Below, one piece after another: positions 27,923-62,314 of a DNA stretch of 64,000 nt (the first letter of the stretch is position 1; the number at the start of each line of letters is the position of its first letter). The notes beneath the pieces are model-generated. The model saw only the letters and a list, made by a program, of their open reading frames with translations. It ran no database searches and was not told where the DNA came from. This DNA comes from Nitrospiraceae bacterium (lineage in GTDB: Bacteria > Nitrospirota > Nitrospiria > Nitrospirales > UBA8639). The position numbers and the translations under genes are program-made. Location of the stretch: the NCBI GenBank assembly GCA_020632635.1, contig JACKFE010000002.1:495625-559624 (forward strand). Reading direction: 5' to 3'.

Positions 27923-29293
27923 ATGACCTTCCCGCAACCCAAACAACTTTTGTATTCGTTGCTCGCCTGCGTATCGTTGCAGGCCGGTCTTCCTTTCGCT
28001 CACGCCTCAGTGCCGGATGAGACAACGACCATCACACTGGACAAAGCCGTTCACTTTTTAGGGACGGACGGCAGCGATGTCGTGGCTAATCCAGGGGAAT
28101 ACAGCGTCGAAACGGCGCAGGAATGGCTCCGGCTCATTCCAGGCACTCAACGCCGGGACGCCCTCCTAATCGAATCGCAAAAAGGTACCCATGAAGTCGG
28201 TGTCGAAGTGCCGATCGTGATCTCCACACCAGGGACCGAACCTGATGCATTAGACGTACACGTGGTCCAATACCTGAACCCGGATGGCACCAGTCTGGTC
28301 GCCACAGGCACATATAGCGGGATTCAATCCCGTGGACTCTTCGATGCCGCCAAGAAAGCCGCCGCCCAAGCTAGAGCAAGAGCCGAAGCAGCCAGACGGG
28401 CAGCAGCCGCGAAAGCAGCGGCGGCGGCAGCGAAAGCCAAACAGGTGGCTGAAGCGGCTCGCATGGCTGCCTTGAAGGCCAAACAAGAAGCGGAACGGAT
28501 CGCCAAAGAAGCCGCCGCCCAAGCCACTCAACTGGCCAAAATTGCGGCTTGCAAGGCAACGGTCGGTGCCTTAAAGGCCGGAAAAGCTGTGGCGACGTTC
28601 ATGCAACAAGTTATCCCCACCGCTAAACAACGGAAGACCAGCGCTGACAACAGCTTTAAACACGATGCCAACTTCCGGGATCAATTACTGTCGCAAATCA
28701 CCAATAAGCTTCAGGCCCACCAGCAAAAAGTCCCGGAATTAAAGCGAATCGCGATCGCCATGAATAACCCCCAAAACCGGGCAAAACTGGATGCCATTTT
28801 CGGAACCGATCAATTCTGTACGGATTCCATTGGAGAGATGCAGCGAAAACTCATTCAGGCCGGCTTGGCTCCAAACTTTGCCTTGATTCAAAGCCGAGGA
28901 GTTGATGATCCCCACTTTTATATTGGCTATCAAATCACCCTGGGCGGTGGTGTTGCAGCAGGCGCGCAAGCCGGGTTGATGGGAGTCGTGGATTTTCATG
29001 GCAATGGGGGAAAATATTGGTTCATCGGACCCCAGGCCATTACCAATGCCGCCGTGGGCTTAACCGCGGAGGTGGCCTTTTATCCTAGTGTGCCGCTGAG
29101 CTCCTTTGATGGATGGGGAGCCGGTGTGGGCATTTCTGCGGGTCCACCATCCAAAATTGTTTCCGGTGCTGTAGATGTGATGCTGGACGAGACCGTCAAG
29201 AAGTTTCAGGGCTTCGGATTTGGTCCTGGAGTCGGAGTCGGCCTTTCACCGGTTGATGGGGCCTTCTCCTACACCCATTCCTGGAAGTATTAA
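27923..29293 (+). CDS. Secreted protein with the shared N-terminal module, an Ala/Lys-rich helical region and a Gly-rich C-terminal domain
   Basis: Signal peptide (…GLPFAHASVP). The module ends LVATGTYSGIQSRGLFD. AAKKAAAQARARAEAARRAAAAKAAAAAAKAK. The C-terminus is similar to that of gene 11594..13540. Confidence 0.8.
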   Translation: MTFPQPKQLLYSLLACVSLQAGLPFAHASVPDETTTITLDKAVHFLGTDGSDVVANPGEYSVETAQEWLRLIPGTQRRDALLIESQKGTHEVGVEVPIVISTPGTEPDALDVHVVQYLNPDGTSLVATGTYSGIQSRGLFDAAKKAAAQARARAEAARRAAAAKAAAAAAKAKQVAEAARMAALKAKQEAERIAKEAAAQATQLAKIAACKATVGALKAGKAVATFMQQVIPTAKQRKTSADNSFKHDANFRDQLLSQITNKLQAHQQKVPELKRIAIAMNNPQNRAKLDAIFGTDQFCTDSIGEMQRKLIQAGLAPNFALIQSRGVDDPHFYIGYQITLGGGVAAGAQAGLMGVVDFHGNGGKYWFIGPQAITNAAVGLTAEVAFYPSVPLSSFDGWGAGVGISAGPPSKIVSGAVDVMLDETVKKFQGFGFGPGVGVGLSPVDGAFSYTHSWKY

Positions 29294-29385
29294 TACTCTC
29301 ATAATACACGGTGATAAAAAATCAAGAGGACCGGCCCTGCTTCGCCAATCTAGTTCGTTAAAATGACTGCCGAAAGGAATGTTCC

Positions 29386-29892
29386 ATGGCAAGACTGCAC
29401 TCCCTTCCACGCATCATCACCCTCATCAGCCTGCTTACTGGCATCGGAAGTTCCCAGGCTTTGGCGGCTGATGTGAGTCCAAATATCCAGGATCGGTATT
29501 CTTCTCCATCAAAGGGGAGAGTGTTGTTGCCATCGGAGAAGCCCCGAACGCCCAAACAGCCCCCAACGATTGAACAACGTTTGGATTATCTGACGTCGAA
29601 AATAGCAACCCTGGAGCAGACCGTTACCACCCTTCAGAGTCAAGTCATTGTTCAAACCCAACAGATTGCCCAACTGCGTCAAGTCATTTCCGTGCACTCA
29701 TCCGGCGCCGTCACGATACAAGCTCCCAACATCCTCAACATCTCTGCCGGCAGTACAGTAAAGCTGGAAGCGAGTTTGGTCGATGTCAAAGCCGGGCTGA
29801 CGGGCGTGCATGGCGTCTTGAAGGCAGATACGGTTATTACCACGAATGTGATCTCGCCATCCTATTCACCTGGCGCCGGAAATATTTGGTAA
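29386..29892 (+). CDS. Secreted coiled-coil protein with a short beta-helix/spike-like C-terminus (paralog of 43966 and 45476)
   Basis: Signal peptide (…GIGSSQALAADV). Heptad region LDYLTSKIATLEQTVTTLQSQVIVQTQQIAQLRQVI. C-terminus VTIQAPNILNISAGSTVKLEASLVDVKAG... Confidence 0.65.
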   Translation: MARLHSLPRIITLISLLTGIGSSQALAADVSPNIQDRYSSPSKGRVLLPSEKPRTPKQPPTIEQRLDYLTSKIATLEQTVTTLQSQVIVQTQQIAQLRQVISVHSSGAVTIQAPNILNISAGSTVKLEASLVDVKAGLTGVHGVLKADTVITTNVISPSYSPGAGNIW

Positions 29893-30439
29893 ATCAAAAA
29901 GTCCGACAGTCCCTAAAAATCTAAGGATTCAGCACCAGCATCACACCTCGTTGCACCAGTAGAACTATAGCACCGCTACTGACGTTGACCGTATCATTGA
30001 AGTCGATCCCCCGAACGGTTCCTTGCCCAACTCCCCTAAATGGCACAAACCAGTTGTCCACCTCTACCATGGAGCGGAGGGAGGCAGGAATACAGAGCCC
30101 CCCACTCATTGGGAATGGTAGTGGAAAATGTATAATCCATACACATGCCAGACATCCCTGTCGCAGTAACCGTATTGGTTGCGAACCGGAACACGACCAG
30201 TCACTCAATCTCAAAAATTTTAGTTGTTGATGATGACGAAGACATTCGTTCCGTCATTAGAGAAATCCTTCCATGGAGAAGGTGACAAGGTTGCCTTGCC
30301 GCCTTCGGTGAAAAGGAGGCGGGATGTTTGGGGACAGAAATTTTTCATAGTGTCTTGCTGGATCCGATGCGGGAAAATAAAACGATGGCGTAGGGGTCAA
30401 CCTAGGACTTCCAAATATTTCGAACTCAAAACCTGTGGA

Positions 30440-31258
30440 TTAAGGGAGGGGAATCTCTCTGAGGACAGGGTTACCTTGATTCTGCTTGATGGCCTCCTCC
30501 TCAACCCTATCAGCCTCTGTCTGTGTTTGATTCTTCCCTGACATTGGCGGAATGGCTGCCGGAGGCGATTGATCTTCCTGAAGCGGAGAAGGGTTTTCTT
30601 GCCCCGGCTGAAAGCTTTGGACAGGAGGCCAGCCTTCCTGCTCCTTGGGGGTATATAGCCGATGCACTTCTTTGTTTATTTCTTCTACAACGTATTCATG
30701 CCTCAGAGCCTTGGAGGAGCCGGTTCCCGGAGTGTCGTAAAGGATATGGCCTTTCCGGATACTCACAACCGGCAGCCCATCGTTTCCATATACCAGATCC
30801 TCGATAATCCGAAACCGTCCAGACGGACAATCCACTATAGGACAATCAATGGCTGTATTCTGATGAACAAACAGAAGATCCCGGCTTCCTACCTGGAATT
30901 GGGGTATATGGGAAACCTCCAAGTACCGGCCATCGGATGCCTGTCCGCCCAAAAATCGCAGCGTTAAATGAGTCCCTTCTGCAGAACGCCCTTTCAGCAA
31001 ATATTCGATTCGATAAGTAACATATGTCGAGGGTACAACATTGGGAGCATCAGGACTTTCTCGACTCTCACGAAATTCCAGTTTCTCCACCGTTCCCGAA
31101 AAAATAAATCCGGCCTCTTTCACCATGTAGGAGAGGGACGGTTCCGAGCCCGGCTCCCTCATCACCCCCTGGCTATACCCAGGATGTCCCAGTATCAGCG
31201 TCCAGGCTACCACAACCAGGATGAGTGGGGATCCATAGGCAGGCCTCGCATTACACAT
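30440..31258 (-). CDS. Secreted protein, paralog family A (CPxVDCxxGRFR domain plus a P/E-rich tail)
   Basis: 272 aa with a signal peptide. TYVTYRIEYLLKGRSAEGTHLTLRFLGG...DCPIVDCPSGRFRII aligns with gene 32620..33780. Confidence 0.7.
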   Translation of the reverse strand: MCNARPAYGSPLILVVVAWTLILGHPGYSQGVMREPGSEPSLSYMVKEAGFIFSGTVEKLEFRESRESPDAPNVVPSTYVTYRIEYLLKGRSAEGTHLTLRFLGGQASDGRYLEVSHIPQFQVGSRDLLFVHQNTAIDCPIVDCPSGRFRIIEDLVYGNDGLPVVSIRKGHILYDTPGTGSSKALRHEYVVEEINKEVHRLYTPKEQEGWPPVQSFQPGQENPSPLQEDQSPPAAIPPMSGKNQTQTEADRVEEEAIKQNQGNPVLREIPLP

Positions 31259-31443
31259 GGCTCAAGGCTCCTCGGCAGCCCCATCTGTTGTGAACGGTCA
31301 ACATAAAGCGATGTTTCTCATTGAAAAATTGTACGCTCAACTCCTGAAACAGCTCAACATTGTCATCCCATTCACCTCCAGAGAGCGGGTAGAACGAAGA
31401 TCTACCCGCTCCCTTTGGTTCATCCAAGTCAGAGGACGTGCCA

Positions 31444-32532
31444 CTAATTGATCCGAATCCCCACATACGAGGAATTATTCGCCTCATTGCTTTCCGCAAT
31501 GGCGTTATCGGGATCAATGATCGCGCCTATGTGGTAATTAGCCCCACTCGTTAAATCATTGGGAATCGTAAGAGTGGTATTTTTCGTGGTATACACGGTG
31601 TTTCGACACACCGAAACACTGCCGGTGCCAATATGCCGGTCCCAGGTCGTAATCAGATCATTGGTTGAAATATAGTATTTCACTGGAACATTATTCTTGC
31701 ATCCTGATCCCAAGTTTTCATACGACATTTCAAGGCGTATTGGTTGGCCTTTGTTTACACGATATCGTGGTTCGCCTGCATCATTGAACGAAGACACCAC
31801 ACTCGTTCCCGCCGAATTCCAAACCCTGGTCCGTGCATGGGTGCTGTATTCTCCACTGGATCCGGTCCATCGCCAATGGGCGATGGCCACATCATTGGTA
31901 TTGTTATCGTTTCCGTACAGATCGACGGCGCCGTTACTGGCATCTTCTCCGGGATAAGCATACGCGGTAGAGCCGTTCGCATGCATATGGGTGCTATCTG
32001 AACCCATCGCGTTATAGGTATAGGACACGTGCTTCAGCCCAAGCGCATGGCCCAATTCATGAACGGCGACCGTCTGAAAGGAGCGAGAACCTCCTCCATA
32101 CCCCGAGAGGGTCTTTTTGTTATGGGTATAGTGGTAAGGCGTGGTGTTTCTAAAGACCACATCCGCTTCAACCAGATGCCCGGTCAAACAGGTATACCAA
32201 TAGTAGGCCACGGCCGGAGCATTCAGGTTGTCCGTCCACCAGACTTCATTTTGGAAATTCCCCTTTCCCACCCCCGGTTCGTTATAGCTCAACGTGAAGG
32301 TAAATTTGCTGGGATTTTGGTTCCAAAGGTTAATTGACTCCGTCAAGGCATTTCTCCAGGGTCCGGCCGGGAATCCTGTACCGGACGCTCGCATCTGCAC
32401 CGAATTAGATCCCCATTTCTGTGTGATCCCGGCACATTTAATTTTCTCGTATGAATGACCCACCGCCGGGGAACAAACCGTGACCAGTAGAGACAACAAC
32501 ACAAAATGTTTGATTTTCATTTCTTCCTCCAT
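31444..32532 (-). CDS. Secreted metzincin-type zinc metalloprotease with a C-terminal CARDB-like domain
   Basis: Signal peptide. HELGHALGLKH (HExxHxxGxxH), with NAMG downstream. The C-terminus ends ...IIDPDNAIAESNEANNSSYV, typical of CARDB. Confidence 0.75.
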   Translation of the reverse strand: MEEEMKIKHFVLLSLLVTVCSPAVGHSYEKIKCAGITQKWGSNSVQMRASGTGFPAGPWRNALTESINLWNQNPSKFTFTLSYNEPGVGKGNFQNEVWWTDNLNAPAVAYYWYTCLTGHLVEADVVFRNTTPYHYTHNKKTLSGYGGGSRSFQTVAVHELGHALGLKHVSYTYNAMGSDSTHMHANGSTAYAYPGEDASNGAVDLYGNDNNTNDVAIAHWRWTGSSGEYSTHARTRVWNSAGTSVVSSFNDAGEPRYRVNKGQPIRLEMSYENLGSGCKNNVPVKYYISTNDLITTWDRHIGTGSVSVCRNTVYTTKNTTLTIPNDLTSGANYHIGAIIDPDNAIAESNEANNSSYVGIRIN

Positions 32533-32619
32533 CAGTCGAGATAATGATGTTCAAAGTGAAATGGCTTAAACTTTATGTCCTAATCAATTCTGAGATTCTG
32601 CGCATGAACCCAAAGGATT

Positions 32620-33780
32620 TCAGGGTTGGAGATTTCCCATAGGCCCTGGATCCTCCTCGCCATCGAATAGCATATTTCCTTCCAACGGCAGGATTTCCTC
32701 TTCTTCCGCTCCTCCCGACTCAATCCCGCGTGGAATGACACGAAGAGGCTTTTGGATTTTAAGATTCGGAAGTAGTGGCCGTTGAATTTCCAAGTTCGGT
32801 TTGATCTGCAAATTGGGCTTCAATCCGCCTGGAGGCCCTTCTTTGAACACGGGATTCATGGCATTTTTCATCAACCATTCAGCTTCTTGTTTATCGAACT
32901 CATTCAAAGGGGCAGCCTCCGGTCGCTCAGGCGCCACTCGCATAGTGGGAGCCTGAGGAGAATGAGGGCGAAGTTTCAACGCCTGGCCTGGCCGCATACT
33001 CTGGACCGGTTTCAGCGCCGCGAGTTTTTCCGGCCGGATTTTGGCTTTTTCCTGGGCCACACGATCTCGGAATTTGAGCATATTTAAATGCTCCCCTGGA
33101 ATTCTCAACTGTTCGCCTTGGTTATATTGCCCCTTGCCTTGTTCTGCTCCCTCCGCGTCATCAGGGTCAATTTCAAAATTAAACGGCAAATTGCCGATCT
33201 TATTATTCATCACCTCAGGCAGCCGATGTTGTTTGCCAAAGAAGATATTTCCTTGAGCTGTCAGTCTGACTTCATGCCCGTCATTGGTAAACATGTGATT
33301 ATTGATCACCCGGAAACGCCCCTTGTCGCAGTCGACCAAAGGACAGTCCGACTCTCCGTTACTTTGGACAAACACCAAATCCCGTTCCCCCACATCAAAC
33401 AGAGGGGAATTCGACACAACCAGAATACGGCCATCCTTGGCCGGTCCACCCAAAAAGCGCAGCGTTACGTTTTTACCTTCGGTGGCTTGTCCCTTTTCGA
33501 TATTTTCAATTTGATAGGTCACAAATGTTTGGGGCAGCTCGCCTTCTTCCGATTCGGTTCCTTGAGCCATCCCGTATTCCACCTTCGAAACCACTCCTTG
33601 AAAAATCAGTTCGGCCTGATCGGTCATGGTCCTCAAGCTTGTTCGCGGCGGTTCATGGGCATGCGCGACTGGGTTGAAGCAGGCGACTCCTGCCACTGCC
33701 AATGCCGTGATCCATCCCATGGTGGAGATAGCTCTTCTTGTCTGACTGTGTTCTCTAACCATTGTGTTGCTCCTTCTCAA
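32620..33780 (-). CDS. Secreted protein, paralog family A, with a C-terminal LQIKP repeat, IPRGIESGG motif and acidic tail
   Basis: 386 aa. TFVTYQIENIEKGQATEGKNVTLRFLGG...DCPLVDCDKGRFRVI. Tail: KPNLQIKPNLEIQRPLLPNLKIQKPLRVIPRGIESGGAEEEE. Confidence 0.7.
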   Translation of the reverse strand: MRRSNTMVREHSQTRRAISTMGWITALAVAGVACFNPVAHAHEPPRTSLRTMTDQAELIFQGVVSKVEYGMAQGTESEEGELPQTFVTYQIENIEKGQATEGKNVTLRFLGGPAKDGRILVVSNSPLFDVGERDLVFVQSNGESDCPLVDCDKGRFRVINNHMFTNDGHEVRLTAQGNIFFGKQHRLPEVMNNKIGNLPFNFEIDPDDAEGAEQGKGQYNQGEQLRIPGEHLNMLKFRDRVAQEKAKIRPEKLAALKPVQSMRPGQALKLRPHSPQAPTMRVAPERPEAAPLNEFDKQEAEWLMKNAMNPVFKEGPPGGLKPNLQIKPNLEIQRPLLPNLKIQKPLRVIPRGIESGGAEEEEILPLEGNMLFDGEEDPGPMGNLQP

Positions 33781-34463: not shown

Positions 34464-36185
34464 ATGGCAAGGATTGTGACTCACCAGCACTCTCATCCCT
34501 TCAGAGTCAATCTTGGAATTGGCTTGGTTCTTCTCATCGCTGTCCTAATCGTTACCTGGCCTTTAGCCCTTCATTGGAAACAAACGGTAGGATTAGGCAC
34601 CGAACAAGAAGCGACAGTTCCACTGTTTAATGCCTGGACTCTTTGGTGGGTAGGCGATCGCGTAGGGCATGGATTCGCCCACTTTTGGCAGGCGCCCATT
34701 TTTTTCCCCAGTGAAGGGACCTTCACATTTTCTGAACCTCAACCTCTGACAGGCATGTTGGCATTCCTGGCCAGCCGCTGGCTGCCTTCTCCAATTGCCG
34801 CATACAACGGAGCGATTTTATTCTGTCTCTGGCTCAATGGAGTATTCGGGTACCGGTTGGGCCGAGCCTTCCAGATTCCCTGGTGGCCGGCCTTGTTGGG
34901 TGGATTACTCTTCATCAGCCTCCCGGTCACACAAAAATTCTTGGGAGTTCTTCCCCTCATTCCCTTGTTCGGTGTGTTATGGGCGCTGGAAGGATTCATC
35001 CGATTCGGGCGCGAAGGATCATGGCGGACAGCCATCTGGACCGGCATTGGCTTACTCGTTCTCCTCTTCACTTCCCAACAACTGGCACTCTTATTCGTTC
35101 TGTTCATGTTCCCAGCCGGGCTCCTGGCCTTGGCCCAACAACATATGTCCTCCGGAGCGGTTCTCAAATTGGGAGGGGTCGCCATGGGGGTTCTGTTGGT
35201 GGCCGGCTGGTATGCCTGGTATCCCATAACCCTACATCAATCATTAGACTTCACACGGTCTGAACATCTGGTCAATCTGCTCTCCGCCCGTTTTTCGGAT
35301 TATCTTTCTAAGCCTATTTCCGGCTCCTTTCCCTTCCCTCCGCGGGAAGACCTTCTCTCGGACACCGGAGGCCTCTTCCCGGGATTCGTGCTGATCGCAA
35401 TGGCAGGTTGGGGGGGGATTCAGGGGATTAAAAGCAGCGAGTCATACGGATGGACGTGGTATGCCATCGGAAGCGGAACCATGGCTTTCCTGCTGTCGTT
35501 GGGCACCCATTCCGTTCTTGACGGAGGAATGACTTTGGGGTTCCTACGGGATTGGGTGCCTGGGTTTCATGAATTACGAAGTCCGTTTCGATTTGCTATT
35601 TTTGTGCAGATATTCCTGGGCTTGTTGGGTGTGCTTGGGATTCGGCATCTCTATATTCACAATACGGCTTGGATTCATCGGATCATACTTGGGCTTATCA
35701 TGGTGTGTGGGATGGCCGAAAATCTGTCAGTCCCCCAACCACTGGCCCATGTTCCTACTTCATCGCCTTCTCCGTGGACAACATGGCTGAGCACACATCC
35801 AGAACGCCGGATTCTCGCCCATGTCCCCTTTCCCTCCGGCCTTCACGTCTCCGATTATCAAATCGAAACCACCCGGATGCTGGCGCAGACGATCCATCAC
35901 AAACCTCTTATTAACGGATACTCCGGATTTTTTCCCCCGGGCTATATCCAATTCCAATCAGATATGGCCAAGAATTTCCCTTCTCCGTTTTTGCTCTGTT
36001 TTCTAGGCAACGAACTGAAGGTCGACACGCTCGTTATCGACCGATCCTGGCAGGAAGCCCATCGCGACCAAATGGAAGCATTTCCTGAACTATCGAAGAT
36101 TGCTTACGATGACGAGGATGTGGTGATTATCGAGATCGGACCGTCGCAGGAGACCTGTCCTCCGTTAACAGCCCCTCTACCCTGA
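34464..36185 (+). CDS. Polytopic integral membrane protein, possibly a GT-C-type glycosyltransferase
   Basis: 573 aa with more than 10 hydrophobic segments followed by a soluble C-terminal part. It is convergent with a polyprenyl-phosphate-type GT2 gene. No specific family recognised. Confidence 0.5.
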   Translation: MARIVTHQHSHPFRVNLGIGLVLLIAVLIVTWPLALHWKQTVGLGTEQEATVPLFNAWTLWWVGDRVGHGFAHFWQAPIFFPSEGTFTFSEPQPLTGMLAFLASRWLPSPIAAYNGAILFCLWLNGVFGYRLGRAFQIPWWPALLGGLLFISLPVTQKFLGVLPLIPLFGVLWALEGFIRFGREGSWRTAIWTGIGLLVLLFTSQQLALLFVLFMFPAGLLALAQQHMSSGAVLKLGGVAMGVLLVAGWYAWYPITLHQSLDFTRSEHLVNLLSARFSDYLSKPISGSFPFPPREDLLSDTGGLFPGFVLIAMAGWGGIQGIKSSESYGWTWYAIGSGTMAFLLSLGTHSVLDGGMTLGFLRDWVPGFHELRSPFRFAIFVQIFLGLLGVLGIRHLYIHNTAWIHRIILGLIMVCGMAENLSVPQPLAHVPTSSPSPWTTWLSTHPERRILAHVPFPSGLHVSDYQIETTRMLAQTIHHKPLINGYSGFFPPGYIQFQSDMAKNFPSPFLLCFLGNELKVDTLVIDRSWQEAHRDQMEAFPELSKIAYDDEDVVIIEIGPSQETCPPLTAPLP

Positions 36186-37667: not shown

Positions 37668-37770
37668 CCCCATGCCAATATTTAAAAAGTATAGAAAGAC
37701 TCAGCCAACACTCGCGGGATACCGTGCAGATATCCCGGTCTATCCATCATCAAACTCAAGGAGGTTGCAC

Positions 37771-38298: not shown

Positions 38299-38357
38299 CC
38301 ACGCAAGGGCACCTGGTAGATCACTCAATGATCGTACACACCACAAGGAGAGCACCT

Positions 38358-41390: not shown

Positions 41391-41756
41391 AAGGTTTTTC
41401 ACCGACCAATGTGTTATTCCCTACCTTCCGTTTTTCGTTCCAGGATTTTTTCTCTCCCCTTATGAACACAAGGCGCCCCCGGCCCAGAAGATAATTTTTC
41501 TTATCTGACCTCCCCAGGCTGCAGAAAATCTCTTTCCCCTTCAATTTCTTCTGATAAGCATCGAAAAAAAATGAAATCGTACATTGCAATACCGGGTCCT
41601 TTCCATGTCCACTTCGCCTCAAGTACGCTCCCCCAATCCAAGAAATTCCATATAACAAAGATACGCCGACAATGAACCCTACCCCCTTGATAAACGACTC
41701 ACATGAAATAGGCTCATGGTCCAACGATGACTATTTTTTTTAGGGAGAACCGAACA

Positions 41757-46012: not shown

Positions 46013-46058
46013 GTTGTCCATTATGCCTCGATCACTCAACAAGAGGAGTATGCCTATC

Positions 46059-50288: not shown

Positions 50289-50341
50289 AGCCATGTGGAA
50301 AATCGGGAATGCATAATCACCCACAAGGGGGACTTGGGACA

Positions 50342-53684: not shown

Positions 53685-54314
53685 ATGAGAATGCCTTTTA
53701 CATTAGCCATTGGGATCTTGTGCCTGAGCATGGGAAGCCCCGGCTCAACAGGAGCTGCCCCCAATCCCGATCTAGAAGCGCTGGCTCAAGGTTCTGTGGT
53801 GCAGTTCAGCGGGACGGAGCGGATCTCCCAGCCGTTTGTGTTCGACTTGGATATCACCGCCCCTCACCCTGCCCTCGATTTTGACAATATCGTCGGGCGG
53901 CCCTTTCAGATTGCCGTAGCTCGAGGCCGGGCGGTGGCCGGGATGGTAGAACGGGTAGAACAGAGGGGAGTGTCCGGTCGACAAGGCCAGTATCGCATCC
54001 GCCTCGTGCCGGCCCCCAATTGCCCGGTCGTCTTGGGAAGCATGTGGAACGGAAAAGACCTGTCTCCCACTCAGCAGCCACCGAATAAATTCCTGTCACT
54101 GTTCCAAAGCCGTTCGACAACCGGTACGTTAAATGAAATTCTCTTCGACGCCACGCAGGACAAGGAACGGTTGATCATGCGGTCCGGCAATCAGTATCTC
54201 TCCCTGAGCCCGCAAGGCATCACCGCCTCCACAGCTATCACCGTTCCCACAACGACAGTTCCCAAGCTTCAATCTTCGCCTCGATTGAATTTTCAGAACA
54301 GGCCAAATAGGTAA
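53685..54314 (+). CDS. Signal-peptide-bearing miniature VgrG-like protein (N-terminal gp27-like start fused to a gp5 OB-end/needle-start segment)
   Basis: Signal peptide MRMPFTLAIGILCLSMGSPGSTGAAP. VQFSGTERISQPFVFDLDITAP...IVGRPFQIAV...GQYRIRLVPAP matches the VgrG N-terminus pattern. It is followed directly by PVVLGSMWNGKDLSP...LNEILFDATQDKERLIM, matching the PxVxGSLWNG...NExxFDDxxGxE block. Confidence 0.6.
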   Translation: MRMPFTLAIGILCLSMGSPGSTGAAPNPDLEALAQGSVVQFSGTERISQPFVFDLDITAPHPALDFDNIVGRPFQIAVARGRAVAGMVERVEQRGVSGRQGQYRIRLVPAPNCPVVLGSMWNGKDLSPTQQPPNKFLSLFQSRSTTGTLNEILFDATQDKERLIMRSGNQYLSLSPQGITASTAITVPTTTVPKLQSSPRLNFQNRPNR

Positions 54315-54409: not shown

Positions 54410-57400
54410 ATGAGACGATTTCTTATCATCTCCATGTGGTTCCTCATCGGTAGTTTGATGGCTATAGATTCTCATCTCGAAGCCGGGAGTGACCTTCATC
54501 TTCCGCAGGTGACGCTAAACCAGTCGACCTCATTTCTCGGCTCGGATGGGGACACTATCGAAGTGCCATCTGGAACGTACACAGTGGAACAGGCTGATAA
54601 CTGGATTCGACTCCAACAAGACGAGCGTCGTGATGCCATCATCCTGCAGGCGAGCCCCCTAACACATATAGAGCCTGTCACCCATTCACAAGCCATACTG
54701 AAACAACACGGATTCAACGAATTTCAGCTCATGCTACTACTCCCAGATGGAACCGGCCTCACTGTCACGGGACAGAGCCAGTTAACATCACGAGGGATTT
54801 CGGCGCTGGCCCGTTCACCGACTTCTCCAAAAAGCGCTGGGGGAAAAAGTACCCTTCCTCAGGGCCTTGGATCGGCATCAGCCGGCATTCCCCAAGTGAC
54901 CCAAGCTCGGCCAACCGTGGACGTTCCCACATCCACCGCCTCGCCACTCTTTGAAGCGACTTACTTGCCCTCGTTTAAAGGGACGCGCATGCTGGAAGGT
55001 CGCGTCTCACGCCTCCCCGTCAGCGCCTTTCACCAGCAAATCATTACTAGTACGACCGGGCTCGAACTGCGGACCCGATGCCTGGGTGAGAACGACACGG
55101 GTATGATCGTCGACATGTCCTCCAATCCCATGACCGATACCTTGGAGCCGATCCCCAGAGGACTGTCGCACACCCTACCTCCGACGAGACTGACCACTCT
55201 CTACAATGACGATCATCCCTCGGCAGAAGGGAACCATCTGGGAAGTTATATTTGTGCAACCTGCCAATCTCCTGCGCCACCTACCTCGATTCGAGCCACA
55301 GTGTACGTTTTCAGCCAACGTCGGGCTACGGCCTATTGTACGTTGGAAAAGAAAGAACCCACCGGCTGGCAACCGCTGACCAACCCTCCGTTTCAACATT
55401 TTGGCGGGACCCTGGTGGATGTCGGCCCGCTCCAACCACATGACTACCTGGAAGTTCAAACCCAAGACTTCACCGGATGGCCGGACTATCAAGCCAAGGA
55501 TTATGATACCCGCATGCTTCTCTTCCAACCGACCAGTCCGGCAAACGGATTACTCTATAACGAAAATGCCCGTTCGGATCGTGATCCCAAAATCGTCATT
55601 CCCAATAGCGCCTGGAGCCATGGATCCAATTACGTGTTACTTGGAAAATCTCAGCCACACACTCAATCTAACAAAGGGGTCGAGGTGAACATTGACCTCG
55701 TACGTGGACCGTTGAACCATGGCCAATCTTCTCATACATTTGGCACCTCCCATCTTCTCTCACCAGGTCGGTACTATGTGTGGCTGTATGCGAAAACCAC
55801 TTCGCCGGTCGGGACTCCAACCCCGAAGCCCCATTCGTCCGCCGACATGAACAGGGCTCTTGAGAATGGATTTACCTGCCCACCGATCATTACCCCCAAG
55901 TCGTCCACAAAAAATCCTCAGTTGAGGGGAACGCTCAACTCCAGGGCATTCGACTTTCGGATTATCGCCAAGCAAAACGGCGCTTGGACAGAACGAAAAC
56001 GCCGGACAATCCTGAAAGGCCAAATGGGTGCGAAGGCGGGAGATCTGAATCTTTTCCTCATGGACCTCGATGTGCCCATTCCCACCGAGATCGCCGTTGA
56101 AGTTCAACATCCAACTCAAGATGTGGAATTTTTCCCACAATGGCGGGTTATGCGGAATCCGGATGCCAGTGATTTCACGGTGGCATCTTTTAATACCCTC
56201 TACGACTCCGGTTCACCTCATGCAAGGAAAACCCGTAATGCGGCCAACCTCCTAGCTTCCCGTGGCATGATTCAACCTGGCACCGGGGCCATTCTTGAGC
56301 CCACTGACCAGGCACCCTGGCAATGGGATGCTGATCTCATTGGTCTGCAAGAACTCAGAGACGGAGATGACGATGGATTTGCGGAATACTTTTACGCGGA
56401 TGTTTTTGCCCGAGAAGCGATGCAGATGGGCTCTCGATCCTGGAATGTCATTCGAGGGCAGGACGAAGACTTCCCGAATGCGGTGGCCACCGATGGGCGG
56501 GGTCCGGTGTTTATCACCGAGCACCTTTGGAGGAGTGGGAATGCCAACAACATTTTCCTTCCGAATTCACTTCTGAAGAAAGCCCGTTGCAAGACCTATG
56601 ACCGAACCAATGAATATGAATGTGCCTTGGAGGATGGAGCCAGCGATTTTGTCAAGACGTTTGGCATCCCGGGTCAAATCAGTATCCCACGTTATCGGTC
56701 AGTGACCGCATCCGGACAGCAAGAAGCTGATCGGCCGATCATGGTAGTCAATCTTCATTTGGCTGACGGATCCTCCGGTTGGTTGAAGAGACGCAACCAA
56801 CTCAATAATCTCATGACCAAACTCCGCACCTTTCTCAAGGAAAACCCCTCGGCCTTTAACAGTGAGGGGAAAAACCACCCACACCATTACCAAAATCGAA
56901 TCCTCTTACTCGGCGATTTCAATTGGTCTGCGCATCATTGCGGCGAGCACTATTGGTTCTTGCACACCCTTCGGGAAGCGTTCGGCTATGCGGTGGACGT
57001 ATCGATGGCTGCCAATGACAATGACATGCATGATCGCATGGGCGCCATCGGCTCCAATGGTATTCCACAGAACTGGGAAAGTGCCAAAAGTTGGAAAAAG
57101 GACCCGTCCCGCCATACCAAGTTTCCCTGGTGGATGACTACCCACCGAGGGAAAGCAGGGAACCTGTATGACCGGAATGAACGGTACGATGCCATGATGT
57201 TAGTCGGAGCCGGATGGGCCTATGACGATCCGGTCCGAGAGTATGAAGTTCTGTGGGATCGAAACGGCAATAATCCATTGAATGGTGACTCAAAGGGTGG
57301 TGTGGAAATGGCCGACACGGGGAACCTCGTCACCCAAAATGGGTACCGCCCTCAATATGCGTTGAAATGCCGAAAACCAAGTTGCGAGGAGGAAGATCGG

Positions 57401-57484
57401 ACGAACTCAACGAAACCAGGCGACCCGGCCTTAGATTCTGATCATTTACCCATTCGAGCACGACTTCGGGTTTTTATCCGATAA
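54410..57484 (+). CDS. Secreted protein with the shared N-terminal module, a large middle region and a C-terminal endonuclease/exonuclease/phosphatase (EEP) domain
   Basis: Signal peptide (…LMAIDSHLEAG). The module ends LLLPDGTGLTVTGQSQLTSRG. EEP motifs: FTVASFNTL, LIGLQEL, VVNLHL, LLGDFNW, LDSDHLPIRARL. Confidence 0.8.
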   Translation: MRRFLIISMWFLIGSLMAIDSHLEAGSDLHLPQVTLNQSTSFLGSDGDTIEVPSGTYTVEQADNWIRLQQDERRDAIILQASPLTHIEPVTHSQAILKQHGFNEFQLMLLLPDGTGLTVTGQSQLTSRGISALARSPTSPKSAGGKSTLPQGLGSASAGIPQVTQARPTVDVPTSTASPLFEATYLPSFKGTRMLEGRVSRLPVSAFHQQIITSTTGLELRTRCLGENDTGMIVDMSSNPMTDTLEPIPRGLSHTLPPTRLTTLYNDDHPSAEGNHLGSYICATCQSPAPPTSIRATVYVFSQRRATAYCTLEKKEPTGWQPLTNPPFQHFGGTLVDVGPLQPHDYLEVQTQDFTGWPDYQAKDYDTRMLLFQPTSPANGLLYNENARSDRDPKIVIPNSAWSHGSNYVLLGKSQPHTQSNKGVEVNIDLVRGPLNHGQSSHTFGTSHLLSPGRYYVWLYAKTTSPVGTPTPKPHSSADMNRALENGFTCPPIITPKSSTKNPQLRGTLNSRAFDFRIIAKQNGAWTERKRRTILKGQMGAKAGDLNLFLMDLDVPIPTEIAVEVQHPTQDVEFFPQWRVMRNPDASDFTVASFNTLYDSGSPHARKTRNAANLLASRGMIQPGTGAILEPTDQAPWQWDADLIGLQELRDGDDDGFAEYFYADVFAREAMQMGSRSWNVIRGQDEDFPNAVATDGRGPVFITEHLWRSGNANNIFLPNSLLKKARCKTYDRTNEYECALEDGASDFVKTFGIPGQISIPRYRSVTASGQQEADRPIMVVNLHLADGSSGWLKRRNQLNNLMTKLRTFLKENPSAFNSEGKNHPHHYQNRILLLGDFNWSAHHCGEHYWFLHTLREAFGYAVDVSMAANDNDMHDRMGAIGSNGIPQNWESAKSWKKDPSRHTKFPWWMTTHRGKAGNLYDRNERYDAMMLVGAGWAYDDPVREYEVLWDRNGNNPLNGDSKGGVEMADTGNLVTQNGYRPQYALKCRKPSCEEEDRTNSTKPGDPALDSDHLPIRARLRVFIR

Positions 57485-57692: not shown

Positions 57693-59861
57693 ATGCGAGC
57701 ATATTGGACAGTTATTCTTTTGAGCTTGATGATCCATGCAAGCATGGGCACGGTCTATTCAGCATCCGCTCCACCGAAAATTTCTGTGGAAACGCCTATA
57801 TACTTCTCTGCCGCCGACGGGAGTGAAATGCTTCTCACACCTCACGTCTATTCGGTGCAAAGTCGAGATCCATTCCTAGAAATGCGACCCGTCGGGGCAG
57901 ACAGAAAAGAGACGATATTACTCAACGCGACCATCGGCACCCACCAGGAGTCTGTTGGGTCAACTACTGCCTTCCTCACAACAGGAGATGAAGAGAATTC
58001 GTATCATCTTGTTCTGTTGAAGCCGGAGGGAACCGCTTACGAGGCTATCGGCACGACGACAAGTCTCCGCTCCAGGGGAACCACGACACGCCTCACCCCA
58101 ATCCGTGTACAGTCTCTCCTGCAAAATCTGAAGAGCCAGACTGTACCGCTCAACAGACCGCCCCTTTTCCCCATCCCGACTATCCCGCCATCAGAGGTAC
58201 AGACCACGAACCCGTGCGTTCGGGATGTTCGCGAGGATTTCCTCAAAATACGGACGCATGGCGATAAACTCGGGTTCCGTCATACTCAATCACCCGGAGC
58301 CTATACTGGAAGTGGCAGTTCTCATTATCAGGGCATTCAACGATTGGGCAATTATCTGGCCATATCCGGCAGTGCAGCCCATGCCGGTGAAATTATGGTC
58401 GTCGAAATGCAGTCCAGAGCAAAGACCGGCCGGTTTCGTTCCAATCGGCTCTCCTCAAATACGCCCCCCAACAATGACCGGGTTATCAAAGTCATTGAAG
58501 CCAGTCGCACCCTGACTCACGCTGGTGGATTTCAGATCATGGGAGAGGTGCTGGCCGTCGGGGTAGAAGGAAGCAATCAATCCGAAGTGGTGTTCTATAA
58601 CATCAAAGATCCGACCAATCCACAAGAGCTGTACCGGATTTCGCGTTCGGGAACCATCGGAGGGTTTAGCGAGAAACCCAGTGCCGGAGCAACAGCCCTG
58701 GTACAACGCCCGGATGGTCGCTTTCTCCTACTAGTCGGACGGTCGGATTCCAACGTTCTGGATTTCTACCTCTCCCGAAATGCCAATATCCTGACCAACA
58801 CATTTGTCCACGTCGATTCCTGGCACGAGCATGAACTGCAAGGCATGGATCGGGAATTTGGAAACTATCAGAACATCAACTTCGTCCGGCAATGTGACGG
58901 CCAGGTCTTTGTTGTTGGACTTCATAAAAACGTGAACCTAGGAGGCATCCTCAGCGGAGGAGAGGATTGGGCCGATTTGTTTAAACTGGAACTGCTTCAA
59001 ATCGGACAAATCGGAAATCCCGGTATCCTCCGTCATCATACGGTCGTTACGAAAATCGCGAACCGGCATCTGTACTGCCATGACATCTGCGACTTCGATG
59101 CAGGCGCTGGCGTGTATGTCGATTCACAGGGAGAATTGTTCATCTATGGAGTGGAACATTGGCGGCACAAGGGCATTGTCCGGTTCAATGAATTCAGGCC
59201 GGTTCCCTCATCCGTCTCACCTCCCCTGCTCGACCTCAATCAGACCTGGATCGAACTCTATGACGACCGTGCCTTTGGCGATCGCAGTATCATGATCGAT
59301 TTCCGTGACCATTCATTGAGAAATTTTTCTGACTATGATCAAGTTGAAGGATTCGAGGACAAAACCTCCTCCGCCAAGTGGGTCATTCCCTCGGGTTGGC
59401 AATACTTGCTGTTTGAGGACAAATCATTCAAGGGACGCTTGCTCAGACTGTCCGGGACCGGCGGTCTAGGAGCCATTTCCGACTTCAGCCCCAGAGATTG
59501 GAACGATACAGTCTCATCCTCAAAATTTTCTCCCGTCACGATCACACAACTCGGCCAAGCCTGGGTCGAACTTTTCGATGATCATACGTTTAAAGACCGG
59601 CGTCTGAGGATAAACGGAGGTTCGGCTGGAATTTCTAATTACCAAAATATCACTGTGGAAGGACAACGAGGATTTGGGGACAACGTCTCTTCAGCCCGAT
59701 ACATGATCCCCAATGGTTTGGTTTACCGCTTATATGAACATGACTCTTATCGGGGAAAAACCTTGGATTTGGTAGGCACCGGACGAATCGAGGAAATTCC
59801 TGATTTCACTACCCGAAGCTTCAATGACCAAGTCTCTTCGTCCAGATTTATCACACCATAG
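57693..59861 (+). CDS. Secreted protein with the shared N-terminal module, a middle domain related to the C-terminus of gene 2535..4727, and two beta-gamma-crystallin domains
   Basis: Signal peptide (…MIHASMGTVYSA). The module ends LLKPEGTAYEAIGTTTSLRSRG. Four Greek-key motifs: LYDDRAFGDR, LFEDKSFKGR, LFDDHTFKDR, LYEHDSYRGK, each followed by VSSxK/R[FY]. Confidence 0.8.
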   Translation: MRAYWTVILLSLMIHASMGTVYSASAPPKISVETPIYFSAADGSEMLLTPHVYSVQSRDPFLEMRPVGADRKETILLNATIGTHQESVGSTTAFLTTGDEENSYHLVLLKPEGTAYEAIGTTTSLRSRGTTTRLTPIRVQSLLQNLKSQTVPLNRPPLFPIPTIPPSEVQTTNPCVRDVREDFLKIRTHGDKLGFRHTQSPGAYTGSGSSHYQGIQRLGNYLAISGSAAHAGEIMVVEMQSRAKTGRFRSNRLSSNTPPNNDRVIKVIEASRTLTHAGGFQIMGEVLAVGVEGSNQSEVVFYNIKDPTNPQELYRISRSGTIGGFSEKPSAGATALVQRPDGRFLLLVGRSDSNVLDFYLSRNANILTNTFVHVDSWHEHELQGMDREFGNYQNINFVRQCDGQVFVVGLHKNVNLGGILSGGEDWADLFKLELLQIGQIGNPGILRHHTVVTKIANRHLYCHDICDFDAGAGVYVDSQGELFIYGVEHWRHKGIVRFNEFRPVPSSVSPPLLDLNQTWIELYDDRAFGDRSIMIDFRDHSLRNFSDYDQVEGFEDKTSSAKWVIPSGWQYLLFEDKSFKGRLLRLSGTGGLGAISDFSPRDWNDTVSSSKFSPVTITQLGQAWVELFDDHTFKDRRLRINGGSAGISNYQNITVEGQRGFGDNVSSARYMIPNGLVYRLYEHDSYRGKTLDLVGTGRIEEIPDFTTRSFNDQVSSSRFITP

Positions 59862-60450
59862 GAACCCTCTAGACTTGAGCACCTACTCCATCTCGATACG
59901 CCGCCGTATCTCTTTCGATACGACCGACCGTCGATATTCCTGAAATTGTATACGCCTTCGCCTCCAGTGTACTCATTTTCCCTGTCATCATCCATAGATA
60001 CCTAAAACCAACCAAGCCATGAATCCACTGGGCTCAGATGGCATAAGGGTTGCGTAACCCATTGAACAAGAACACGCGCTGGGATGACAACGATGACAAA
60101 GAAAGAGAATCATCCACCAGATTTCCTTGATGCCGATCTCCCTACCATAGGAGCACGGTCGATCTCTTATCGGAGTGTCAAAATCAGAAGGGACCGTTCG
60201 CTCTACCCCATTGAAAGCATAGATAAAACGATGGTTATGAGAAAAACGGCTGTCCGTCTCTTGGAATCACCTGAGGGGGAACTCTCCGACTGGACGAATC
60301 ACTTTCTATCCTGTGATTCAAGGATCTTGTGCAGGCCGAATATCCCCATGATGCATATACGTTCGCTGTCTCACAAAAGACATTTTTTGTCCCAAATGTG
60401 CCAATTTCATGACATGGTCTGAATAGCCGCTTGACGAGGAGGGAAGCCCC

Positions 60451-60666
60451 ATGGATGACATCATGAGCATTTCTCGATCATTGGAAAAAGGGATGTACAT
60501 TTTGCGGGAAGGCGATTGCCTATGGAGAATCGATGAAAAAGGCAGGGTCGAGGACATGGCCACGGGCCTGACTCGAGTCTTCGAACAACTGGCTTTTATT
60601 CAGCAATGGAAAACGCCGTCACGAGGCATTTTTGAGGAACATCCCCAACAAGATCCGTCAATTTAA
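60451..60666 (+). CDS. Hypothetical small ORF (71 aa)
   Basis: An ORF only, with no signal peptide. It contains PSRGIFEE, which resembles the island motif. Weak support. Confidence 0.25.
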   Translation: MDDIMSISRSLEKGMYILREGDCLWRIDEKGRVEDMATGLTRVFEQLAFIQQWKTPSRGIFEEHPQQDPSI

Positions 60667-61222
60667 CAGGCAACGATACGGTGCAGTCCGATCTGCTTTC
60701 AGGTATTTCCTGTATCCCCTCCCCCTCGAGTGCCTAAGAAGAGTAAATCCAAATGCATCTGCCTTCACCTTTTAGGTAGGAACGACTCTCGGTCTCATTG
60801 AGAAAATTTGAATGTCAAAAAATACAAAGGATTTCGCTACTGCAGGGATCAATATGACTGAAAAAAATTGATAAGGCTCATACCCGACGGAATAACGAAC
60901 CATAGTTCAAGTGTGGGAGGGATGCCTCGCCCTACGAGACAGCATGCGGATGTGGCACATCAATAATGTGATCGTCGACTGTTATGTTCGGAGGCATACC
61001 AAAATCTTTGAGCTCCTTTCCGGCATGCCAGGCAGGGAATTCCGTTTCCTAATTTTCCTCACACATTAATTTCTTGTCAGGCCCATTTCGCTCACCTCCT
61101 GCCCGGAATGACGCCTACAGCACATCGTCCTCTTACATCCTCCCCTATTCCTTAACACCTTACGACGTTCAAAACATTCGGGTGGATGATTGCGCTGCCC
61201 AAGCCCTACCAATTTTGAGGCT

Positions 61223-62314
61223 TCACCCAAACTCGGGGACGACCTTTTCGCAATACATTTCAACCTGCACATACCCCGGCTTGTCAGGAAGTCGCACCAC
61301 ACTCACGATACCAAGATGCTCAAGGTGGAGCGTAAAAACCACTGTATTGTTTTGAGTGGGGGATAACCATCGCAGGGTTCCCTTTTTTTCAAACCTGTCC
61401 GCATTCAACCCCTTAATGACAAAATTGGCATGCCAATCATAAAAGGGCTGGGCCTGAGTTTCGGGAAGCACTACCTTTACATTTGAATAATCTTGAGGCT
61501 TCGTTCCCGGAAAGCCGGAAACCGTCGGATTTGGAGGAAGGAGGCCTGCGGAAAATATTGGGGTCTCGACTCGGGCGACTTGTTGAATGCCCCCCCAACC
61601 ATCAATAGAAAAATGAAAATAGCCTTTCAACGGGGTACTAGACATAGAAGGCTTGACGAATTGAGAGGCCGCATAGCTTCCAGAAACACGTTGAGTTTGC
61701 ATGACACCGATAGTCACACGAAGGGACGCTGAGTGCCCAGGTAAAGCAATATCGGCATCTGGGAACGATAACTCCCGCAAAAAGCCCCCAGAAAATTGGA
61801 GCTCATTTCCTTGTTCTGCAAAGCGATCCTTCATGAAGATTGAACCGGTAATCGCCTGAGTGGCTCCTTGAAGGCTGTTGACCAGCCAGTTATTAAATGA
61901 CTGGCCTGGAACAGGAAGGTAATAGAACACCAGATCACGGTATGTGAATCCCTGAATGTGTTTGAAAATCCGACCCTCCATCCCCTGCTGGCCGGAAGAG
62001 GATCGTCCCGCTGCTTCACCTCCCTCAAATCTGAATATCTCCAGAGGGCTCCCACCAAAAGACAATCCAAAGATTTGTGGATATCCCATCAATGGATCGG
62101 GAACAATTTCCCTTGGCGGCGACTGCCGGGACGGCTGAGATATGTCGGCATTGACTTCAGGAATCGACAAGGCTGCTAAGGCTGCCCCAGCCCCTTGGAA
62201 AACCCCAAGGGGAAGGCCAACCGCGGCTAACCCACCCATACTAGCCAGCCAGAGAAATCCCCTCCGTGAGAGAGCCCCATCCGAATCCCGTGGTCCTGGT
62301 TCCGCTGAATTCAT
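61223..62314 (-). CDS. Tat-exported protein with two tandem tail-tube-like domains (paralog of 41757..43073)
   Basis: Twin-arginine motif LSRRGFLWLASMGGLAAVG. Its second domain aligns with that of the paralog: VVLPETQAQPFYDWHANFVIKG...GTLRWLSP...VVFTLHLEHLGIVSV...VQVEMYCEKV versus VTLPRTQAGPFTEWFKQFVING...GSLEFLAP...VLFKLNFEHLGIFRM...VKVEMYCETL. Confidence 0.55.
   Translation of the reverse strand: MNSAEPGPRDSDGALSRRGFLWLASMGGLAAVGLPLGVFQGAGAALAALSIPEVNADISQPSRQSPPREIVPDPLMGYPQIFGLSFGGSPLEIFRFEGGEAAGRSSSGQQGMEGRIFKHIQGFTYRDLVFYYLPVPGQSFNNWLVNSLQGATQAITGSIFMKDRFAEQGNELQFSGGFLRELSFPDADIALPGHSASLRVTIGVMQTQRVSGSYAASQFVKPSMSSTPLKGYFHFSIDGWGGIQQVARVETPIFSAGLLPPNPTVSGFPGTKPQDYSNVKVVLPETQAQPFYDWHANFVIKGLNADRFEKKGTLRWLSPTQNNTVVFTLHLEHLGIVSVVRLPDKPGYVQVEMYCEKVVPEFG

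Follow-up and report, generated by a model that had tools for sequence, protein, structure and literature searches.

Homologues of phage-tail tube and spike proteins with export signals in a sheath-less gene island of Nitrospirota

Introduction

Can the folds of a phage tail be used outside the cytoplasm? To our knowledge, all characterised machines derived from phage tails, including type VI secretion systems (T6SS), the extracellular contractile injection systems (eCIS) and the tailocins, are assembled in the cytoplasm and require the context of a sheath or a virion. The question is raised by a gene island of a Nitrospiraceae bacterium (GenBank assembly GCA_020632635.1), found at 27.9-62.3 kb of a 64-kb window (contig JACKFE010000002.1, positions 495,625 to 559,624, forward strand). 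The window is the whole stretch of DNA analysed; its G+C content is about 52%, and its closest named relatives are metagenome-assembled genomes (MAGs) of Nitrospirales. The island holds two tail-tube proteins with twin-arginine translocation (Tat) signals, three small spikes, a mini-VgrG, eight proteins with a common N-terminal module, and two cassettes of a zincin protease and its partners. Hydrophobic leaders are present at the N-termini of nearly all the products of this region; only a cytoplasmic GT2 glycosyltransferase clearly departs from this. The homologues of the inner parts of contractile injection systems (CIS) have conserved export signals, are under purifying selection and are co-located with a polymorphic secreted family, and no sheath is encoded nearby.

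An initial annotation, made from the sequence alone, had listed two Tat tube-like proteins, general secretory (Sec) or Tat signals on all CIS-like parts, at least eight module genes and two protease/partner cassettes. All four entries held. The tubes have Tat motifs and profile or structural matches, the eight module genes were recovered by a module hidden Markov model (HMM) together with three more upstream, and both cassettes are present with marginal protease scores. The signal peptides were assigned by the n/h/AxA pattern, hydrophobicity and conservation among orthologs. The comparison loci (designated L001 and so on) all came from MAGs or metagenomes, with flanks of at most 10 kb examined.

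Tandem tail-tube proteins with Tat signals

The open reading frame (ORF) of tube1 spans 41727-43073 on the forward strand; the protein probably starts 10 codons into it, at 41757, as does the public gene call (P0001, 438 aa). By itself, tube1 matched the Pfam family gp19 (PF06841) at 22.8 bits, under the cut-off of 28.2; PF06841 was present in most of its 32 database homologues. The profile of the tube family matched the Streptomyces CIS tube in the PDB (8bl4, E-value 5.9e-7), Afp1 (2e-4) and also Pvc1. Structures were predicted with AlphaFold2 (AF2) for monomers only. The tube1 model had a predicted local distance difference test (pLDDT) score of 76.6 overall and mostly >90 in the core (residues ~60-350). 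Its best Foldseek matches were the tandem-domain tubes of T5 (pb6), DT57C, P74-26 and SH-Ab15497 (E-values of 1e-7 to 1e-9), followed by dozens of single-domain tubes of eCIS, T4 and Hcp (probability 1.00 for tandem and single-domain tubes). Sequence profile and structural similarity both place tube1 in the tail-tube family; since the best structural matches are tandem-domain tubes, it is one chain with two tube domains.

The second tube, tube2 (61223-62314, reverse strand, 363 aa), is a divergent paralog. It gave no Pfam match alone, and the tube HMM matched it at 2.5e-34 over profile positions 16-347. Its identity is 26-29% to the compared Nitrospirota tubes and 37% to that of L004. The twin-arginine motif is SRREFLKK in tube1, where TIGR01409 scored 17.0, just above the cut-off of 16.7, and SRRGFL in tube2. 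By these motifs both proteins are Tat substrates, and their export is predicted. The Tat motif is kept in all the Nitrospirota tube orthologs and also in other phyla.

A C-terminal extension of about 100 aa in tube1 (42780-43073; ..YRHNPVQNAWHEGSITQEG..) is not present in the orthologs. Downstream of tube1, a short intergenic ORF (43459-43662) starts with a similar string, AEYHHNPAQNDWHMSMSWIEQD, which suggests a degenerate duplicate. No gene was found in the gap between tube1 and spikeA (43.07-43.97 kb).

Members of the tandem tube family were found at 67 genome loci, spread over at least eight phyla. The genome scan used the narrower alignment A2, the wide alignment A1 being too diverse. Tubes with a leader, Tat or Sec-like, were found in Nitrospirota, Verrucomicrobiota, Chloroflexota, Acidobacteriota, Armatimonadota and Dormibacterota. 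The Myxococcota tandem tubes are leaderless, start at the tube fold and stand beside Phage_sheath_1, Pvc16_N and GPD genes, an arrangement typical of canonical eCIS. A sheath gene lay within the flanks of 13 of the 28 signal-less tube loci versus none of the 34 signal-bearing ones (Fisher p 4.5e-6, uncorrected for phylogeny). Some of the signal-less tandem tubes carry a SAM-dependent methyltransferase domain (PF02353) as an N-terminal fusion (L022 1326-2951; P0024-P0026).

Small spike proteins

The spikeA protein (43966-44535, forward strand, 189 aa) consists of a signal peptide (predicted cleavage between ..AHA and ADP), a coiled coil and a probable beta-helix of the VgrG/gp5 type. Its Pfam matches to DUF2345 (5.8e-6) and Gp5_trimer_C (1.8e-5) were both sub-threshold (25-27 bits versus ~31). 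The spikeA family profile matched the PDB entries 9mlp (a 'cytoplasmic protein', 1.9e-9), 8kea_D (the central spike of cyanophage A-1(L), 2.2e-9) and 7q5p (VgrG, 1.9e-6), and several C-terminal helices of VgrG. The spikeA gene of L005 (9340-9911) is split into two ORFs by a frameshift, either by decay or by an error of the MAG assembly.

The other two candidates are spikeB (45476-46012, forward strand, 178 aa; its ORF opens at 45440), which has a signal peptide (..ALA before ADP), a coiled coil and a beta-rich C-terminus, and spike1 (29386-29892, forward strand, 168 aa), which has a signal peptide, a coiled coil and, at its C-terminus, a short beta region that ends in PGAGNIW. The N-terminal half of spikeB is homologous to that of spikeA, and spike1 matched the spikeB HMM at 4.9e-7, its Pfam matches being to coiled coils only. 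Both have the same signal peptide, 'AADP' site and coiled coil as spikeA (hhalign 98.6%). Orthologs of spikeB were found in L001, L003, L005, L007 and metagenome loci, and one of spike1 in L039 (15037-15579). All these spikes are without the gp27/OB hub. The initial annotation had counted three spike/needle-like proteins, and spikeA bears this out with profile matches near 2e-9; the spike assignment of spikeB and spike1, judged by sequence similarity, is weak.

Signal-bearing VgrG and Hcp

The mini-VgrG (53685-54314, forward strand, 209 aa) consists of a signal peptide and the opening ~85 residues of the gp27-like domain, joined to the last part of the OB fold and the C-terminus. The protein matched TIGR03361 (5.6e-18) and Phage_GPD (1.7e-10; 41 bits versus the gathering cut-off of 30.1), the latter at profile positions 1-71 only. 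In a BLASTP comparison with the 538-aa ortholog of L003, residues 7-112 aligned with 7-112, and 111-201 with 437-527. By this alignment, the mini-VgrG is an in-frame deletion of ortholog residues ~113-436, which removed the body of the gp27-like domain together with the greater part of the OB fold. The last OB strand is kept, and complete Phage_GPD and Phage_base_V domains are not found. The gene is thus where the initial annotation had placed it, with the signal peptide and a Phage_GPD match above the cut-off, but it is an internal-deletion derivative.

The intact orthologs in L001 and L003 have Phage_GPD (3e-60), Phage_base_V (1.2e-16), DUF6484 and a signal peptide. The VgrG search gave 190 matches at E <= 1e-20. 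The best 120 of them include short proteins (~540 aa) and long ones (630-710 aa, with DUF2345). About 100 of these 120 have a leader, and essentially all the complete sequences among them have a hydrophobic leader of ~25 residues before the conserved start NPxL..QGxVVQFxGxE. The VgrG of L002 (14056-15686) is frameshift-split into two ORFs, again by decay or by MAG assembly error.

No Hcp was found in the window. Hcp proteins (PF05638) with a signal peptide are encoded in L095 (8233-8784; ..SVAQA before APEF) and L098 (7701-8234; ..AVAHA before APEF). In both loci the Hcp gene is followed by a conserved CxxCxxCC (PF03692) protein, a protein of ~100 aa and then a signal-peptide VgrG. The leaders of these Hcp proteins, like those of the VgrG-clade members, end in AxA-like sites. 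A lone 537-aa signal-peptide VgrG (P0297) is located among metabolic genes at 10001-11614 of L097, whose context resembles a gammaproteobacterium; the related P0306 is named Gammaproteobacteria. Because this context is not Nitrospirota-like, the exported VgrGs may reach beyond Nitrospirota.

Conserved gene order and selection

In L001/L006, L002, L003, L005 and L007, a DUF928-module gene is followed by spikeA, then the Tat tube, spikeB and module genes; in L001 and L003, the full VgrG comes after these. In the tube-anchored loci L001, L003, L005, L007, L011, L039 and L042, module genes adjoin the tube in every case, and the first four of these have spikeA and spikeB too. Besides its Tat tube, L039 encodes orthologs of spike1 and of the window genes 24104-27565 and 27923-29293; the ortholog of 27923-29293 is two genes downstream of the tube and directly upstream of spike1. 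Moreover, spikeA served as the anchor at 22 metagenome loci. Wherever at least ~600 bp of downstream sequence was present, spikeA was followed by the tube and/or spikeB, immediately adjacent in each case except L080. For example, the order in L087 is spikeA, tube, spikeB, five module genes and a full VgrG.

The VgrG-anchored loci L095, L096 and L098 contain tubes, spikes and/or module genes. L096, which lies on a contig of 4.0 Mb, shares synteny with the window, and its VgrG is intact. In L095 and L098, Tat tubes and spikeB-like proteins accompany the signal-peptide Hcp, the CxxCxxCC protein and a long signal-peptide VgrG; L098 also has module genes, and no sheath was found in either locus. 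The initial annotation had made its proposal depend on the co-occurrence of these families in other genomes, and it is seen whether the tube, spikeA or VgrG is taken as the anchor.

The orthologs of the tube, spikeA, spikeB and VgrG are 51-68% identical. Their ratios of non-synonymous to synonymous substitution (dN/dS) are 0.11-0.23 with dS >1.3; those of spikeA and spikeB are 0.12 and 0.13-0.15, respectively. The values are approximate, because the synonymous sites are saturated. Neutral decay of these four families is ruled out by the low ratios.

Absence of the contractile parts

The initial annotation had reported no sheath, baseplate, ATPase or TssJLM in the window, and the scans agree with it. 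No sheath, baseplate (TssEFGK), AAA+, ClpV or TssJLM family was found by Pfam among the scanned proteins of the 64-kb window (ORFs of at least ~160 aa). An HMM for sheaths, trained on the Myxococcota loci, was likewise negative in the window and in every Nitrospirota locus, although divergent sheaths could escape it. The eCIS set, consisting of the sheath, the gp25/gp6-like baseplate, the tape measure, the Afp15-type AAA+ and Pvc16, is absent from the window and the Nitrospirota loci. Among possible PAAR or other small CIS parts, the ORFs 39383-39715 and 60084-60422 had no family match and were not gene-like.

The N-terminal module and its cargo

The module is a domain of ~105 aa located directly after the signal peptide in eight proteins of the region. 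The first is a secreted protein of 456 aa (27923-29293, module HMM 6.6e-38) with an Ala/Lys-rich coiled region and a Gly-rich C-terminus, which has no Pfam match. The second (40206-41390, 1.4e-33) combines the module with DUF928 (9.8e-22). Four successive module-cargo genes follow at 46056-48167, 48219-50288, 50309-52495 and 52575-53543 (1e-39 to 1e-41), and two more at 54410-57484 and 57693-59861 (1e-35). All of them are on the forward strand, as are the three upstream genes at 11594-13540 (two module copies, 5e-60), 15225-17219 (6e-35) and 22409-23080 (5e-35). The feature therefore begins well before 27923.

No Pfam family covers the module. Its AF2 model is an all-beta domain of 10 strands (pLDDT 90.2). 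A weak BACON_2 match (E-value 0.006) is to be disregarded. Among 1.84 billion representatives, the module profile matched 1026 clusters (50% identity), of which 778 had E <= 1e-10. In most of the listed members, proteins of 124-1024 aa, the module is just past the N-terminus (about residue 30), and the named members are all Nitrospirales or Nitrospira. The C-terminal domains of 85 long members include Lipase_3 (4), M23 peptidase (3), BTRD1, CARDB, PAN, RCC1, crystallin, WSC and one eCIS_core; most are unannotated.

Only DUF928 clears its curated cut-off among the module proteins of the window. Sub-threshold matches were Exo_endo_phos2 (E-value 0.0033) in the 54410 protein, Crystall (0.0022) in the 57693 protein, and cytochrome families among the four successive module-cargo proteins, of which that at 50309 has two CXXCH motifs. 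The C-terminus of the 52575 protein has a weak jacalin-type match (Parkia lectin, 0.006). The PDB matches of the 54410 C-terminus to designed 'Pizza' propellers were disregarded, as no stretch passed alone. The N-terminal region of the protein at 20304-22376 (GIGGPGGNPFSLECGQSAILVGIIGRSG..) resembles the C-terminal domain of the 52575 protein (GGSGGTRSYNLDCGTQSVLVGVVYKSG..), which suggests a common lectin-like domain. The effector- or binding-like cargo of the initial annotation was therefore retained in part: DUF928 and a Ricin-B lectin pass, the latter on a module-less lipoprotein, and the endonuclease-like (EEP), crystallin, cytochrome and jacalin matches are weak. This lipoprotein (44696-45373, forward strand; lipobox VVGC) lies between spikeA and spikeB and matched Ricin_B_lectin at 2.8e-7 (31.2 bits versus 29). 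Ricin lectins are also encoded in L099, L100 and L101. A DUF928-module gene stands just upstream of the spikeA/tube cassette in L001, L002, L003, L005 and L099.

Two module-anchored loci were compared, L100 and L101, which had been picked only for their long contigs. The tube of L101 lies inside the module array. L100 has a module array and neither tube nor spike within 10 kb, so the association is asymmetric: the spikes and tubes always stand in module arrays, and not the reverse.

The Arg-Gly junction motif

The module ends in G[TS]YSG[IV][RQ][SP]R[GA] in 148 of 170 copies. A general form, [IVL]x[SPKR]R[GA][ILV], recurs outside the module in window proteins, in L039 (3889-4431), in L095 and in L098. 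The strict form [IVL]x[SPK]RG[ILV] precedes the acidic low-complexity C-terminal tails of the proteins at 24104-27565 and 38328-39236, and a looser RG form, read from the translations, precedes the tails of those at 32620-33780 and 17660-18865. The Ricin-B lipoprotein contains an internal VKSRGL. In proteins of L095 and L098, the motif comes after the signal peptide and a short acidic stretch (..GSRG.., ..VQERAV..). Taken with the module junction, this distribution suggests a site of processing or sorting that is used throughout the lineage. Proteases of the zincin and trypsin-like kinds are encoded in the islands.

Protease cassettes and other genes

In the first cassette (30440-33780, reverse strand), a zincin with CARDB (31444-32532; Peptidase_M10 27.3 bits versus the cut-off of 24, CARDB 7.6e-8) stands between two paralogous secreted partners (30440-31258 and 32620-33780). 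The zincin and the 32620 partner have syntenic counterparts in L001/L002. The second cassette (37672-39236, forward strand), which is syntenic in L001/L003, consists of a small zincin (37672/37768-38298; 24.0 bits, at the cut-off) and a partner (38328-39236) whose acidic tail follows IRPRGL.

Between the two cassettes are a multi-pass membrane protein of 573 aa (34464-36185, forward strand), with at least five hydrophobic 19-mers and no Pfam family, and the GT2 glycosyltransferase (36177-36962, reverse strand; Glycos_transf_2 2.2e-32). The pair is syntenic in L001-L003. It is uncertain whether it belongs to the system; speculatively, the two might be a polyprenyl-phosphate-sugar synthase and a periplasmic glycosyltransferase for the Ser/Thr/Pro-rich linkers of the secreted proteins. 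Upstream, genes of envelope biogenesis are located among the first secreted-protein genes (5702-9629, 13544-14500 and 18862-20526), including OpgG/MdoG (8e-173), an OpgH-like GT2, a DsbA-like oxidoreductase and Lnt, an apolipoprotein N-acyltransferase.

Comparison with known systems

The island genes are similar to several known systems and differ from each of them. The VgrG orthologs have the full Phage_GPD, Phage_base_V and DUF6484 of a T6SS, and the mini-VgrG matches the T6SS family TIGR03361. The longer members of the VgrG clade keep DUF2345, L095 and L098 add Hcp, and spikeA matches the C-terminal helix of VgrG. However, the VgrG, Hcp and spikes of the island families have cleavable-looking Sec signals; TssBC, TssEFGK, TssJLM and ClpV are not found near the island genes; in this clade the beta-helix is encoded apart from VgrG, by a gene in which it is joined to a coiled coil; and the VgrG of the window is missing residues ~113-436.

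The island tube belongs to the gp19/PF06841 lineage of eCIS such as Afp, PVC, AlgoCIS and the Streptomyces CIS, as its profile matches indicate, and signal-less members of the same tandem-tube family adjoin sheath, Pvc16_N and GPD genes in Myxococcota. In contrast to these systems, the island tube has a Tat signal and no sheath, baseplate, tape measure or AAA+ ATPase beside it, and the cargo has Sec signals instead of the N-terminal packaging signals of eCIS. The leaders were also considered as eCIS packaging tags of the 'N-terminal signal peptide' kind; this was rejected, as they are classical hydrophobic Sec or Tat signals.

In siphophages, tandem tube proteins carry two tube domains per chain and form trimeric pseudo-hexameric rings, which are stacked without a sheath. 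The island tube aligned with those of T5 (pb6), P74-26 (TTP) and DT57C over ~330-380 columns, with a TM-score up to 0.64 on the target; whereas it is only 8-12% identical to them, is chromosomal and exported, and has no virion, tape measure or tail-tip genes. The likeness may reflect a convergent domain duplication.

The module family is similar to the polymorphic toxin/effector systems (Zhang et al. 2012, PMC3482391) in its conserved N-terminal domain of the trafficking type, its variable C-termini and its tandem arrays, and its C-terminal domains across the family include Lipase_3 and M23 peptidase. It differs in that the module has a new beta fold, for which Pfam, PDB and BFVD gave no match, that immunity genes were not recognised, and that most of the C-termini are unannotated or lectin-like rather than toxins. 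The parts have known folds. Three features seem to be undescribed: their export, the detachment of the spike helix to a coiled coil, and a Nitrospirota cluster without a sheath. The searched literature gave no account of a Sec- or Tat-exported VgrG, Hcp or tail-tube protein, and DUF928 was met in one unrelated paper only.

Proposed role and alternative explanations

Our preferred reading, held tentatively and at somewhat less than an even chance, is that the island represents CIS inner parts, conserved in Nitrospirota, that were re-addressed to the cell envelope to build a non-contractile structure carrying module-tagged cargo. The tandem tube, with two paralogs here, would be exported folded via Tat and would form pseudo-hexameric trimer rings like the siphophage tandem tubes. 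The spikes would be small trimeric 'headless spikes' exported by Sec. Tube rings and spike trimers, with VgrG and Hcp where present, might then assemble into a non-contractile, sheath-less structure in the periplasm or at the surface, which would carry, stabilise or present the module-tagged cargo. The invariant Arg-Gly/Ala junction would be a likely site of proteolytic release. We infer the assembly outside the cytoplasm and the docking of the module on the tube or spike parts. A more specific version, in which the inner parts of T6SS/eCIS (Hcp, VgrG, the tandem tube and detached spike helices) became a new Sec/Tat-exported, sheath-less apparatus that loads module-tagged enzymes and lectins, is possible but rather unlikely.

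Several observations weigh against the preferred reading. The similarity of spikeB and spike1 to spike helices is weak (~1e-3; 1.2e-3 for spikeB against the CIS Gp5/VgrG). VgrG is deleted here, frameshifted in L002 and was not seen in L005 and L007, so that an assembly nucleated by VgrG is not universal. The exported tubes outside Nitrospirota, in five other phyla, are solitary, with no spike, VgrG or module nearby, and clustering of their neighbours gave no recurrent partner; the function of the tube there must be one for which spikes and module are not required. The module fold has no significant match in the PDB (best E-value 0.05, TM-score ~0.3) or in BFVD (best E-value 0.02). The L100 array lacks tube and spike within 10 kb, and the adjacency of module genes is partly expected, because they are dense in these islands. 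Neither an energy source nor an outer-membrane conduit was identified in the window; a CsgG-like lipoprotein is encoded near the L095 cluster.

One alternative concerns the module. It might be a pro-domain, an intramolecular chaperone or an envelope sorting tag that is cut at Arg-Gly/Ala by the island proteases and has nothing to do with the tube and spikes. We regard this as plausible, though with the balance of probability against it. It accounts for the near-invariant junction, for the same motif before the acidic tails of non-module proteins and after the signal peptides in L095/L098, for the zincin and trypsin-like proteases encoded in the islands, and for the L100 array. However, cleavage at the junction is only predicted, and the constant embedding of spike and tube genes in module arrays, seen in spike- or tube-anchored loci, is left unexplained. 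Moreover, such a cleavage is compatible with the envelope structure as its release step; the two readings overlap and are not exclusive.

It is also possible, but rather unlikely, that the exported tube, spike, VgrG and Hcp were individually co-opted as secreted proteins and are clustered only through a lineage-specific secretome island. They might then act as adhesins, as structural proteins of the envelope, or as chaperones and carriers in the form of rings or trimers. The solitary exported tubes of the five other phyla, the lone VgrG of L097, the dispensability of VgrG in this genome, the leaders on nearly every product of the region and the L100 array all fit this explanation. It does not account for the order [DUF928-module gene]-spikeA-(tube)-spikeB-module, which was kept while the tubes diverged to 38-60% identity, with synonymous sites saturated where measured. 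Since three or four CIS-derived families (Hcp, VgrG, tube and spike) co-locate in L095 and L098, their independent co-option is unlikely.

We consider it improbable that the genes serve a canonical cytoplasmic T6SS or eCIS located in another part of the genome, to which they would supply spare tubes, spikes and VgrGs along with islands of effectors. VgrG/effector islands apart from the main T6SS cluster are common. A cultured relative, Nitrospira marina, encodes and expresses a complete T6SS with TssA-M, ClpV, a 151-aa Hcp and a 719-aa VgrG (PMC8115632 supplement). A T6SS may be encoded outside the 64-kb window that was searched. However, every CIS-like product of the island has a conserved Sec or Tat signal, the cargo has Sec signals too, and exported proteins cannot join a cytoplasmic assembly. 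Sheaths adjoin the signal-less tube homologues and never the signal-bearing ones, and the spikes have no gp27/OB hub.

A further alternative is that the genes are relics of a decayed prophage or eCIS and no longer have a function; the initial annotation had offered 'unrelated decayed prophage/eCIS fragments' as its own alternative. This is highly improbable, and effectively refuted for the tube, spikeA and spikeB. The mini-VgrG, a true deletion derivative, the split VgrG of L002 and the frameshifted spikeA of L005 speak for it. Against it, the ORFs are intact and syntenic under low dN/dS and saturated synonymous sites, the export signals were acquired and conserved, and the genes were met again in dozens of contigs, which come from different samples.

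Implications

Because the exported set of tube, spike and VgrG, to which sister lineages add Hcp, is never linked to a sheath, the folds of phage tails seem to have a second, extracytoplasmic life. These exported folds occur in nitrite oxidisers of global importance. Three families are offered for follow-up: the signal-peptide VgrG clade; the Tat tandem tubes, found in at least six phyla; and the N-terminal module with its Arg-Gly junction, in about 1000 clusters. If the more specific version of the preferred reading is true, the island would encode a new kind of envelope or secretion apparatus derived from phage tails, which acts without contraction.

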